This document shows, one piece after another, positions 9,600 to 56,961 of a stretch of 64,000 nt of DNA. A program made the position numbers and the translations under genes. The DNA comes from Octopus vulgaris. Lineage: Eukaryota. The notes under the pieces were generated by a model. That model did not search any database. It was given only the letters and a program-made list of their open reading frames with translations, and had not been told where the DNA came from. The stretch is taken from positions 73,904,001 to 73,968,000 of the forward strand of contig OX597818.1 in assembly GCA_951406725.2 (NCBI GenBank), written 5' to 3'. Numbering within the stretch: the stretch's first letter is position 1; each line of letters opens with the position of its first letter.

Positions 9600-10030
9600 A
9601 AAATAATAAAATGGAGGAATACATCTTAATCAATAATCAACTACCAGATAATACCCATTCACATAATTTATTAACCAACTACATATGAACAAACATAATA
9701 GTACAGAACAAAACAGTGCACATCAATGAGTAATATGATACAATAAGTACAATATGTATAAATAAATATAAATAAGTATAAATATAAATATAAACTATAT
9801 CTTACAGCTGTTTCAGCCATGTAGATATGAGTATCTCATTATGCTCATATTAGGTGTGATAAGTTAATATGTGGTTACAAATGAGATACTTACAAATATA
9901 TCCCAAGGCCTCTTCAGAGATTATAAAGTACAATCCAAATATGAATATAAGAGAAGGTACACCTATACAAGAATGAGTACATATGCATAATATATAATAT
10001 ACACATGCATATAAGTGTATATACACATGC
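9600..10030 (-). mobile_element. Short non-coding repeat with a hammerhead-like motif (same family as 32100-32565)
   Basis: Reverse complement of 9601-9650 matches 32515-32562. Contains the motif at 9799-9921. Flanked by TA-rich microsatellite. Confidence 0.7.
9799..9921 (-). ncRNA. Type I hammerhead ribozyme-like motif with long stem II insertion
   Basis: Minus strand: AUCU CUGAAGA GGCC [~90 nt] GGCU GAAAC AGCU GUA^ AGAU. Stems I and II pair; helix III is the palindrome ACAGCUGU. Confidence 0.8.
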
Positions 10031-10589
10031 ACCTATATATATATAAGTATATACATAATAATATATAATAATATACATATATACATATATATATGCACAT
10101 GAGTGTTTCTGTATGTGTATCCCTGTTTATCACCACCCCCCGTCATCGCTGGTGTGTTTATGAACCCGTAACTTAGCGGTTTGACAAAACAGAAGGATAA
10201 AATATATTCTAGGTTTTCACGGAATAAGTTCTGGGGTAGTTTTCTTCGACTATAACACTTTAAGGTGTTGCTACAGCAACTGATAGAGAAAAAAGAATAC
10301 GTATGCGTGTGTGTCTGTCTTTGTGTTTGTGTGTGTGTGTGTGTGTGTGTGTGTGTGTGTGTGTGTGTGTGTGTGTGTGTTTGCAATTTCATTAAACTAT
10401 ATCTGATACTCAATTTGCTGATGTAAACATCGTTTTGCCTAAAATTATAGAGAAAATATGTCTAACTACATATCTCTCGGGAAATTTATCTATATTCCTG
10501 GTCATATACGCCATATCGGTCTACGTAAAGTCACTCTCTACTAATGTGCCTCCAACTTAATAATATTTGAGTGAATTGGCGTGTGTATA

Positions 10590-11635
10590 CAGGGGTTGGA
10601 CAAAATAGTGGAAACACCAAGCATCATAATTCTGAAATATCTATAAAACCGTCAAAACTTGTTTATTTTTATGTTTTTTATTTATTATTAGTATTGCTTA
10701 ATATGTTTTGCTCACATTGCTGTTTCTTTTCAGATGTCAGAAGAAAAAGGTAATTAAAATTCATTAAAATGGCAGATCTATCGGACTTTCAAATTGTTGA
10801 TGCTCGTATAGCGGGAGCTAGCGTAAAGAAAACAGCTGAAATGCTTGGTGTATCAAGAAGTACTCGAAAGTAGTGACAGCGTTTGAGAAAGAGGGAAAAA
10901 ACCTCCTCGTGGAAACAAAAATCCGGAAGAAAACCAAAACTTTCAGATAGGGACCGTTGGACTCTTACGCGAATTGTTAGAAAGGATCACGAAAATGCAG
11001 CAGCCAAAATTACTGCAGAGCTTTATAACCCCTCGAGATGCCAGTTTACACAAAACTGTTTGCCGGGAGCTGCACAAAGCAGTATACGTGTGGAGACACC
11101 CAAAGCAAGCATCTGACCCAGACTGCTTTTTCCAACTGTGATAATCTGGGGACCTGTATCATGGAAATCTGCCAGCCCAATGGTTTCCTCCCATGGCAGA
11201 ATTAATAGTCAAGTCTATTTAAGCATTTTATCTGATCAAATTGATCCTATGGTCGTGGAACAGTTTCCGGAGGGAAACACAATCTTTCAGGATGATAATG
11301 CCTCAATTCACACAGTTAAAGTTGCTACTGAATGACATGAGGAACATTCTAGTGAAGTTCAAAATCTTATCTGGTCACCACAGTCCCCAGATCTCTATAT
11401 TATTGAACATTTATGGCGCATTTTAGAAGTAAGGGGTCTATATCCTCCACCATCATCACTACAAGAACTGGAGACTGCTTTAGAGAAAAATTCCTTTGGA
11501 AACAATTCAAACTTTGAACGAGTCCATACCTCGTAGTTATTGAAGCTGTAATTACTGACAAAGGCGGCCCTAACCCATAAAAAAATTAATTTGTTTGAAA
11601 TTTTAAGGTGTTTCCATTATTTTGTCCAACCACTG
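10590..11635 (+). mobile_element. Tc1-like DNA transposon, internally deleted, with pseudogenised transposase
   Basis: TIRs CAGGGGTTGGACAAAATAGTGGAAACACC / GGTGTTTCCATTATTTTGTCCAACCACTG with TA on both sides. Motifs MADLSDFQ..., GRKPKLS, IFQDDNASIH and WSPQSPDLYIIEHLW. Confidence 0.93.
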
Positions 11636-12171
11636 TATCTACGCAAAAAAAACCGTACATATTGAATTTCTGAGTTGTATTGATCAAGCAATGGTTGTCA
11701 AGTAGACCACCTATTTAATTATATTGAATCACATCTATCTATTTATCTAAGAACGATACTTATATCTCGTGGTTATATATGTTTAAATGACCAACATATG
11801 TAAGCTTAGGTATTTATCAAAACCACGTTTATTCACCTAATTCCCTCGTATTTCTCTGTCGGAAATAAGTCCTTCACTTATTATATAGAATCGGAGATAA
11901 CTATAGTTCAATACGAACTCATTTATTTTCCCTGTATAAATACGCATACAATCAAATATTTGTGTGTGTAGATATATATATATATATATATATATATATA
12001 TATATATATATATATATATATATATATATATATATGTATATATATATATATATATATATACATATATATATATACATATACATATACACATGTATATATG
12101 ATTATATGCATATAGACATATATGTATACGTACACATACACAGAAAAATATGTGTGTATGTATTCTTGTAT

Positions 12172-54071: not shown

Positions 54072-54096
54072 GCTTGCTGCGTTCGGGAAACGAATG

Positions 54097-55170
54097 ATTT
54101 CTTTATTGACCACAAGGGGCAACATAGGGGGAAAACACAAGACGTATGAGGACAAAAAACGAATGAAAGAAAAATGAAATGAAAATGAAAACATGAATGA
54201 AGCCTTTTGGCCTCACCTCCGAGTGACTTCCTTCATCCTGTTAACACGACCTTAAATGTAATCAAACTCCATCTTTCTGTAGAATGTCAATATTGGAATC
54301 ATCTCGGAGATCACTATAGTTTATATATTTTGGTACCTTACTGGTGTCCATTATCTTCTCCCAGTATTGAAAGTCTTTATTGTAGTTAACTATTTTTGAC
54401 ATTTGATTCCGGTTTGCCAGCACACAATTATAACGCCGTGGTATCCCAGTATAAGTTCCCGAATTAACTGTTATTGCATCTTCCCAAGTCTTTATGATTT
54501 TGCAGAGTTCTTTATTTAAACCGTCGTATATCACTACGTGTTTTTGTTCTTCATAGGCCGGGATAGAGAAAGTTTTGGGATCCTGTGTGCCTGCGTTTTT
54601 CTTTGTGTCGGGGGTGTGGAGAGGGTTGGCGTCTGTAGGGGCAGGATGGGGCAAAGTGGGTACAGGTGGGCGTTGTGTGGGTGTGGGACGGGTATATGGA
54701 TAGAAGTACCATTTCTTATTTCTTTAAAAGGGTTGCCGAGTGTAACCTGGTAGTAGCTATCTCTCGGAAGCGCACGTCCACTGTTCCGAACTTCCTTCTT
54801 CGGGCAAGATACGAAGCTCCTTGCTAGATTGGTTTCAAGGCTTTTTCTACATGCGTAGTCGTTATTATTTCGATTTTCTTTATTTTCGTTCTATATATTA
54901 TAGTTTTTTCTTTGGTAGCTTTCAAAATTCCTTGGGAAGGGAACATCTTTACTCCGCACCCTTGTTAGTTCGACTTCGTTGCTGTAGCTCTTGGCAAAAG
55001 TCGCAAATTTCTTTCCTTCACCGGTTCCTCCATTATTCGACAGACTTCAATAGTTCCTCCTCAAAAGATGTAAGCTCCGAGGAAGAGAGGCTTTCATACT
55101 CCATTGTTAACACTTGTGCTACCCACTTCTTCGAAGGGTTAAAGCGTCAGCAGACTGCCGTAAGGCGGTA
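54097..55170 (-). mobile_element. Decayed retroelement remnant (possible ORF1-like coding plus LINE-type tail)
   Basis: Tail CCTTGTGGTCAATAAAGAAAT resembles those at 58400-58420 and 47975-47995. Broken reading frames upstream have no motif I can name. Confidence 0.35.
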
Positions 55171-56722
55171 AAACAAGTGTAGCAAAGTGTTTAAAAGACA
55201 CGAAGCAATTTTAGCAGTAAGCGATTCAACAAAATAACACTCACATGGGGACGAATGGTAGGCTGGTAAATTTGGGTGCGTTTTATACCCAATAAGTCGT
55301 TTTGCACGTACATCAGGCTTTTCATAAGGATGCGTTCGCAAGCATTACCATGTTCACGCAAAGTGAACGAGTTCGAACCCTACATATGTTTTCAAAAAAG
55401 AGTGGTGTCATGTGTTAGTGACATCTTTCTGGCGTCAAATTAACTAAAATTGTGATAAAATCCATGTAATCCCAAAATCAGTTGTGAAACAGATAATCTT
55501 GTACTGTGCGACGCTTCTTTTCTAGCTCAGTATCTATCTATCTATCTATCTATCTATCTATCTATCTATCTATCTATCTATCTATCTATCTATCTATCTA
55601 TCTATCTATCTATCTATCTTTCTATCTATTTATTTATCTATCTATCTATCCATCTATCTTTAGATTACAAAACGTATACACCAACATAAACGCATATATG
55701 TATGAGTATGTGTGTCTGTCTGTTTGTCTATCTATGTGTATATATATATATTTATATATATACGAATATTTACGAACGTATGCTTGTGTGTATGCATATG
55801 CACGCGCACACACACACATACAGACACTCGCATACACATATATAGGCATGTGTGTAAATATGTGACGAAATATATTAGTACAATATGTCAAAGAAGAACA
55901 TTATCTTATTAATTAAGTTAACTTACTGTTTGGTTTAGGGCGAAACATAATTGATAATACTTGCTCCACAAAATAGGGAAAAAATTATCTTTAACGTAAA
56001 AGTACAACGAAGATTATGTGCATTTTATCGTTTTCTACTCTAATGCTAATATCCAATTTGTTCAGATACATCTGGTACAAACCATGCTGGGAAGAGTTTA
56101 AAATTAGTTCAATAAATCACCTTCACAACCGCCTACACTAATTATAATTCAATTCAATGTGAAGCTAGGCGTAAATTCTGCTAATAAATTAATGAAAAAC
56201 TTCATTACATCTAAACCTTTGAAATTTTTTCTTTGCATTTTGGAACTCTAATTTATTATTTCCATTTATATATTCTCCGTATCGCTTTTCGTCAAATGCT
56301 TTCTGTCAAATTCCTTCTCCTTCAATAAATAATGTTTTCTTCTTGTATATTCGACTTTCTGCCCTTTTTTCGCTTTCTCCATTCACTTCTCCTTCTTATT
56401 TTTGCTCTGTCTCTCACTTTCTCTCACCTACTCTCTTTATGTCACACTTTCTCTATCTCTTCATACGTACTTTCCTGTATATATATATATATATATATAT
56501 ATATATAGATAGATAGATAGAGAGAGAGAGAGAGAGGAGAGAGAGAGTGTGTGTGTATGTGCGTGTATATATATGGATGGATGAATTATCCTTTGTTTAC
56601 CGTTAACATGGAAAATTCAATAAACAGTTACCAGGGTAGCAAAATTAATGCAAATAACACGGATGATGCGACCTATTCAAAGGTAGAAACTCCGGGTTAA
56701 TGTGTAGTAATTTGTGTAGTAT

Positions 56723-56961
56723 AAGTAAATAAATAGAGTTGAAGGAAGATGTTATTAAAATTCTTTTACTTTCGACATATGTTTCGAAGTCAACATGGCT
56801 TTATTCCAAAGGAATAAACGCTGTAAAATGCAATCTTCTCCTCAGGAAGATTGCATTTTACAGCGTTTATTCCTTTGGAATAAAACCATGTTGTCTTCGA
56901 AACATATGTCGAAAGTAAAAGAATTTTAATAACATCTTTCTTCAACTCCATTTATTTACTT
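56723..56961. repeat. Near-perfect palindrome (116 bp arms, 7 nt loop TCCTCAG) containing a minus-strand hammerhead
   Basis: Arms 56723-56838 and 56846-56961 differ at about 4 sites. Minus strand: UUC CUGAGGA GAAG [..] CUUC GAAAC AUAU GUC^ GAA (56848 to 56772). Confidence 0.92.

Follow-up and report, generated by a model that had tools for sequence, protein, structure and literature searches.

Hammerhead motifs and their core variants in Penelope-like element families of a 64-kb window of the Octopus vulgaris genome

A stretch of 64,000 nucleotides of Octopus vulgaris DNA (GenBank assembly GCA_951406725.2, contig OX597818.1, positions 73,904,001 to 73,968,000 of the forward strand), here called the window, was analyzed for hammerhead ribozyme motifs that had been picked out by a sequence-only reading. 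The motifs are very probably type I minimal hammerheads that reside in the 3' end repeats (pseudo-long terminal repeats, pLTRs) of Penelope-like elements (PLEs) and in two gene-less derivatives, and the copies on a tandem transcript would pair via helix III, with slow cleavage after the UH site as the likely result. Motifs of this kind are mostly known; what sets the present ones apart is core variants that are the state of whole families.

A whole or partial hammerhead motif could be identified at all 17 positions listed in the sequence-only reading, and both core halves are present in 16 of them. The proposed order of stem I, CUGANGA, stem II, GAAA, helix III, UH and stem I' was recovered, in family F2 weakly. 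When the family majorities were mapped back, the predicted "about nine" families proved to be exactly nine dispersed repeat families (F1 to F9), with three motifs for F8, one each for F3 and F9, and two for each of the others. Helix III, described as usually palindromic, has this form in every one of the nine family majorities; that of F5 leaves a single base in the center unpaired. A canonical core and stems that pair occur together in only three of the 17 copies (9917, 39625 and 56845); three match a non-canonical family state (32192 and 33547 with U4C, 32823 with A6U) and 11 are damaged. Many core-mutated copies had indeed been noted, but several of these "mutations" are fixed family states, which had been overlooked. 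Judged from their sequence, most single copies are likely dead. Behind the 17 motifs stand 13 insertions, because four motifs are inverted or tandem partners.

The F1-like hammerhead at 9803-9917 (-) belongs to a diverged subfamily with a canonical core, a G10.1-U11.1 wobble and a helix II arm of ~96 nt, and the F1 copy at 32192-32310 (+), with the family state U4C, a 100-nt helix II arm and helix III ACAGCUGU, lies in the 5'-truncated 3' end of a Hydra-like PLE (31735-32734). The first F2 hammerhead-like copy (15704-15787, -; element 15606-16324) has GAGA in place of GAAA. The second (23697-23779, +; element 23541-23981) shows the 2-bp stem I, an A opposite G at 10.1/11.1 and a broken stem II pair, and the inverted 5' part of its insertion is a Hydra-like GIY-YIG fragment (23355-23489, -; tblastn 51% identity, E 4e-10). 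F3 is represented by a minimal hammerhead with the family state A6U (32823-32850, +) in a solo end repeat (32772-32938). A minimal F4 hammerhead with U4C, the state of the young subfamily, was found at 33547-33573 (+) in a solo repeat between (TA)n tracts (33471-33677), and an older F4 copy with a canonical core and a stem II mismatch at 40147-40173 (-; element 40046-40251).

The two F5 hammerheads form a 511-nt head-to-tail pair (39109-39934), of which the first unit (39114-39163, +) carries A6G and the second (39625-39674, +) has a canonical core and pairing stems. The F6 motifs are the left (40914-40949, -; stem II mismatch) and right (41238-41273, +; private U4C and stem II mismatch) arms of a head-to-head insertion. 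Both F7 motifs, likewise in an inverted insertion (43052-43574), are damaged; the left arm holds 43096-43191 (-) and the right arm 43440-43535 (+), with the family state U4C and a 77-nt helix II arm. A first parse had placed this last core near 43490, which was ruled out by the family majority. F8 is present as an inverted, 5'-truncated copy that has lost CUGANGA and retains the GAAA half only (51076-51120, -), as a copy with a stem II mismatch and G at position 17 (51265-51310, +) in a partial tandem (50827-51396), and as a copy with G8A (51936-51981, +; element 51893-52117). In F9 (56774-56845, -) the core is canonical, and stem I (3 bp) takes its 5' strand from an inverted arm (56846-56964). 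The junction of this fold-back (56570-56964) lies exactly at the hammerhead core, and the inverted part of the F9 copy in L221 (L-numbers denote fetched DNA) stops there as well; in other F9 copies the inversion lies elsewhere. F9-related sequence in L220 shows a 175-nt period upstream of the motif.

Three further pieces belong to families found in addition to these nine. A decayed hammerhead of a tenth family, with an A3-U8 core and a 2-bp stem II, lies at 9166-9190 (+) and is absent from the list of the sequence-only reading; it occupies the 3' untranslated region (UTR) of the PLE whose frameshifted linker and GIY-YIG endonuclease remnant is found at 8234-8805 (+; 82-87% to an open reading frame (ORF) in L351). 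A PLE family with a G3-C8 core has left a 3' fragment without core at 38990-39108 (-; 82% to L401) and a copy truncated inside stem II, with the GAAA half and the 3' tail only, at 40307-40446 (+).

To identify the carriers, one window copy per family was searched against the genome (2.8 Gb in 227 contigs, rich in microsatellites), which gave 232-2,854 first-look candidates each; for every family, 40 candidates were scored and 25-30 loci fetched. F1, F2, F3, F6, F7 and F9, and likewise the A3-U8 and G3-C8 families, occur downstream of PLE GIY-YIG ORFs. In F1, the 3' end is constant and lies at (TA)n, the 5' ends are ragged and inverted 5' copies occur; the long copies (L241, L243) reach a PLE thumb and GIY-YIG ORF that ends ~2 kb upstream of the motif on the same strand. 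A GIY-YIG ORF was found upstream on the same strand in 4/25 loci for F7 and 1/25 for F9, and the F2 link is seen in 3/25 loci, one on the same strand and two inverted, one of the latter in the window. The endonuclease beside F7, F9 and F2 resembles that of F1 and carries motifs described for the Hydra clade. In L243, F3 lies downstream of a GIY-YIG ORF whose linker is of the CX4CxxC form. The marks of PLE-type insertion, 5' truncation, inverted 5' copies, (TA)n targets and lack of poly(A), were all observed; a wide-range count of inversions was set aside as evidence for insertion, since one control repeat was too abundant. For the remnant at 8234-8805, which probably is of the Neptune/Nematis type given its CX4CxxC linker motif, no Pfam match was obtained, and 15,574 first-look candidates were counted genome-wide. 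An abundant and diverse set of PLE-mobilized hammerhead repeats, as had been proposed, is therefore supported, with six of the nine families traced to PLE ORFs and two being gene-less and retrozyme-like. Most of the families, however, represent the 5'-truncated ends of autonomous PLEs rather than independent non-coding units, which the sequence-only reading had implied. It is concluded that the motifs belong to PLE end repeats and gene-less offshoots of these, a known arrangement, and do not form a separate system.

The family cores are canonical in F2, F5, F6, F8 and F9, carry U4C in F1, F4 and F7, and A6U in F3. Among the best-hit loci, whose core counts lean toward the query, U4C was found in 29/29 for F1, 27/29 for F4 and at least 16/23 for F7, and A6U in 24/24 for F3. 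In a query-unbiased sample of 96 stretches of 10 kb (960 kb) taken at round coordinates on 29 contigs, U6 was present in 9/11 F3 matches and C4 in 6/10 F4 matches, the young ones: the F4 copies of at least 95% identity have C4 (6/6) and those of at most 91% identity have U4 (4/4). The C at 33548 in F4 makes up 63-94% of the depth in contigs of four runs. Decay of single copies as the source of U4C is rejected on the basis of the F4 identity split and of this depth; the U4 of the older F4 copies may be ancestral or a product of CpG decay.

When positions 3, 4, 6, 7 and 8 were freed, the 3-8 pair was Watson-Crick in 21/22 sample matches (15 C-G, 4 U-A and 2 G-C), with one match in reversed DNA, and all four Watson-Crick pairs occur across the families. 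U3-A8 is found in three families. A3-U8 (core AUGAAUA) is present in 27/31 copies of the family to which the endonuclease remnant in the window belongs, and G3-C8 in 9/11 sample copies of one PLE family. The latter appears to be very young, since all 40 scored matches are identical (100%) over 161 nt, and includes a 524-aa open reverse transcriptase (RT) and GIY-YIG frame flanked by inverted motif copies. The Pfam GIY-YIG match of this frame (E 2e-4) is below the cut-off, its Atlas look-alikes carry RVT_1, HTH_animal and GIY-YIG, and no relative was found in the PDB.

Helix III is palindromic in all 21 families of the assembled library. The energy of the monomer hairpin is positive, or the hairpin impossible, in 21/21, and the energy of the helix III dimer duplex is negative in 20/21. 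In full tandem PLE transcripts, two copies would thus pair through helix III, and cleavage after the UH site would be slow and gated by dimer formation, as suggested by published work on PLEs. Cleavage, perhaps assisted by the PLE protein, may release unit-length or circular templates, the hammerhead RNAs would be copied by the PLE RT/endonuclease, and no activity would be expected from the solo, decayed copies in the genome. The maintenance of the 3-8 pair as Watson-Crick in four forms points to selection on the catalytic fold, and the high copy numbers reached by the U4C and A6U families point to slow cleavage being sufficient.

The same variants can be read differently, namely that the fold persists for a binding or structural role, serving the PLE protein, RNA dimerization or template switching, and that cutting is incidental or was lost in several families. 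In favor of such a role, amplification was not stopped by A6U (F3, 24/24 best-hit loci) or U4C (F1, 29/29, as well as F4 and F7), PLE insertion in vitro proceeded without cleavage, which itself depended on the protein (PMC11167929), and Naiads, according to the available sections of PMC8557442, spread without canonical hammerheads. However, the 3-8 pair, G5, A9, GAAA and UH have been conserved in 21 families that are unrelated to each other. The 3-8 pair is part of the active conformation of the hammerhead, and its maintenance is counted against a structural or binding role, which is considered rather unlikely but remains a serious competitor.

Several points nevertheless weigh against slowly cutting hammerheads of PLE end repeats. 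In the available sections of the respective reports, cleavage by PLE hammerheads is weak, even in dimers (PMC4209133), eight of nine Xenopus retrozyme dimers remained uncleaved and one was active (bioRxiv 10.64898/2026.07.22.740005), and activity is lowered by U4C and low with A6C (PMC3088659). Insertion in vitro had no need of cleavage, no RNA-seq ends were found at the site, and cleavage required the protein (PMC11167929). On the side of the sequences, F2 has a stem I of 2 bp only and lacks the G10.1-C11.1 pair, the ORF links of F3 and F9 rest on one locus each, for F4 no ORF link was found in 30 loci despite its resemblance to F3, the best-hit core counts are query-leaning as mentioned, and the PLE clade labels were assigned by motif, not by tree.

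In F6, the end repeat has an additional component. Many F6 copies consist of a 75-nt tRNA-like head followed by (AAT)n and the hammerhead; neither F6 arm in the window retains the head. A separate tRNA-derived short interspersed element (SINE) with a borrowed PLE tail could have explained this arrangement, as the hammerhead body is present downstream in 26/29 head-selected loci, an inversion adjoins the head in 14/29 loci compared to 2/70 and 1/50 in two control tRNA-like repeats without hammerhead, and most copies start at the head or a few bases before it. The interpretation was dropped after a Penelope/Poseidon-type GIY-YIG endonuclease ORF had been found to extend as far as the head in both L184 and L382, so that the F6 unit is not independent of a coding element and is that PLE's own end repeat. 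In addition, the head was called a tRNA neither by ARAGORN (0/25 loci) nor by Rfam, and its box A/B-like motifs were read by eye. A separate SINE is thus judged to be improbable. Upstream extension into the element was seen in only ~3/29 head loci, which were selected for a full head, and this suggests that short transcripts may start at the F6 head. The control tRNA-like repeats without hammerheads (L008 and L032, many loci) are themselves abundant, with 213 and 50 matches in the fetched DNA. The 3' ends of other elements were observed inside the (AAT)n linker of F6 (L263, L287; F6 loci L170, L180, L188), as if long interspersed elements (LINEs) targeted the microsatellite.

F5 and F8 are gene-less units of ~510 and ~335 nt, respectively, with a period of 497-517 nt in 9/25 loci and of 291-335 nt in 10/30 loci. 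With partial tandems, circular permutation and one hammerhead per unit, both appear retrozyme-like in sequence. Head-to-tail tandems of gene-less units were identified for these two only and not for F1, F2, F3, F6, F7 and F9. A classic retrozyme-like array was seen in L245:2307-4513, where a 359-nt tandem array carries seven canonical hammerheads (five on + and two on -). From F5, F8 and the L245 array it could be argued that all families are independent non-coding retrozymes replicating as circles. This is very improbable, because 6/9 families are continuous with PLE ORFs and ragged at their 5' ends, and direct second copies are rare except in F5 and F8; for F1, F2, F3, F6, F7 and F9 it is ruled out by the ORF links.

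Chance matches in AT-rich repetitive DNA are practically excluded as the origin of the motifs: Rfam finds none in the window and GAAA with a short palindrome is by itself common (~90 sites), but a strict descriptor (at most one core mismatch) matched five times in the window and 22 times in the 960-kb sample as opposed to zero in reversed DNA and in block shuffles (20 for the window, two for the sample), and covariation is seen at unconstrained positions. A crude scan for cores in reverse order gave none in the window and 11 in the sample compared to three in reversed DNA, with no recurring family.

The library of 21 families detected 64 places with both core halves in the 960 kb and none in reversed DNA, of which 40 keep the family core and seven are supplied by a single tandem array. 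This corresponds to one motif per 15 kb and an estimate of ~187,000 motifs genome-wide (bootstrap 131,000-248,000). The window, with 17 motifs compared to 4.3 expected from the sample (P ~0.0007), is ~4x denser, in part because nine library families were defined from it. One motif per 4 kb, which the sequence-only reading had given, thus holds locally only, and the estimate for the genome is ~190,000 and not 700,000 motifs. On the window, no Rfam match was obtained at the gathering threshold, and the 150 of 265 weak matches (E<=10) that were listed contained no hammerhead, only microsatellite-driven noise of the microRNA type. As Rfam misses all motifs in the window, the number of ribozymes in such genomes is greatly underestimated; for the giant squid, 235 Rfam Hammerhead_1 hits have been reported (PMC6962438).

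PLE minimal hammerheads, U3-A8, retrozymes and the PLE origin of the latter have already been published. The octopus motifs resemble the PLE minimal hammerheads described in the available sections of PMC4209133 in their type I order, short stem I, G10.1-C11.1 pair and palindromic helix III, in an extra base after A9 (here in F3, F4 and F6), and in the many families per genome, most of whose copies are solo and truncated, the inverted pairs at a distance of 100-700 bp and a U3-A8 variant. They differ from these in the family-level U4C, A6U, G3-C8 and A3-U8, in the helix II arms, which measure 53-100 nt in F1, F2, F7 and F9 and fold into hairpins, compared to 7-8 bp with short loops, and in the number of motifs, ~190,000 compared to ~9,000 in Xenopus tropicalis, obtained with different methods. 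F5, F8 and the L245 array share with animal non-LTR retrozymes, as described in parts of PMC7229834 and bioRxiv 10.64898/2026.07.22.740005, gene-less units of 330-510 nt with one type I hammerhead, partial tandems and the origin from PLE pLTRs; up to 120,000 copies are given there for the axolotl. Unlike in these retrozymes, 7/9 window families are not tandem monomers, and no loop 1-loop 2 tertiary motif was recognized.

The carriers agree with the Hydra, Neptune/Nematis and Penelope/Poseidon PLEs, as far as presented in the available sections of PMC8557442, in the C-terminal GIY-YIG domain, (TA)n targets, inverted 5' copies and tails, and in the linkers (CxCX5C in F7, CX3-4CxxC in the F3, A3-U8 and G3-C8 elements), and differ from them in the ~2-kb 3' UTR of F1 and in the tRNA-like segment with which the F6 pLTR begins. 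A head of RNA polymerase III type followed by a type I hammerhead relates F6 to the Schistosoma Sm-alpha/Sj-alpha repeats (available part of PMC6765202), from which it differs in its minimal PLE-type hammerhead and in long copies that are continuous with a PLE ORF. With respect to natural core variants, U3-A8, U4C (in a viroid) and a 2-bp stem II are already listed in the available part of PMC3088659, where such variants are rare, whereas U4C characterizes three repeat families in octopus; G3-C8, A3-U8 and A6U are not named in its section on the subject. In laboratory hammerheads, C3G/G8C gives a partial rescue. Word searches of the open literature for octopus hammerheads returned only work on Naiads, and no description of natural G3-C8 or A3-U8 or of PLE-mobilized SINEs was found in them; variants may be contained in Lunse 2017 and in the supplements of PMC4209133 and the bioRxiv report. 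Ribozymes are not mentioned in the available part of a 2026 octopus repeat annotation, and the passages of PMC6155905, PMC13725137 and PMC10085705 that could be consulted have no bearing on core variants.

The hammerhead may process PLE precursors or merely ride along, and the families with altered cores can serve as a natural test of the need for cutting. The natural swaps of the 3-8 pair are sequence evidence for a fold under selection, and high-copy families that differ in their cores allow cleavage rates to be set directly against mobility. Tentatively, the octopus genome can be regarded as a mutagenesis series made by nature, with changes of the hammerhead core fixed across entire families that amplified recently (four 3-8 pairs, U4C three times, A6U once and G3-C8 in a still-spreading PLE), in which PLEs might select for the fold while requiring only slow cutting gated by dimer formation and protein, and in which one Poseidon-type family might drive SINE-like copying of its end repeat from a captured tRNA-type promoter.

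Remnants of other elements are also present in the window. The PLE GIY-YIG remnants reported by the sequence-only reading could be located (8234-8805, +, and 23355-23489, -), but its RT remnants are derived from LINEs: they match an ORF in L244, a non-PLE LINE with zf-RVT, at 35-98% and match no PLE seed. Broken copies with RVT_1 and zf-RVT, which we take to be R4/Dong-like, lie at 4263-8131 (-) and 59197-60730 (+) beside (TAA)n tracts, and L244:1927-4089 holds an open frame of 721 aa from this family. Remnants of a Tc1/mariner-type transposase were observed at 53034-53997 (-), with DDE_3 and HTH_Tnp_Tc3_2, and, by eye only, at 25905-26387 (+). The segments 17000-19300 and 20100-22500 form a local duplication with a spacing of ~3 kb that includes minisatellite arrays.

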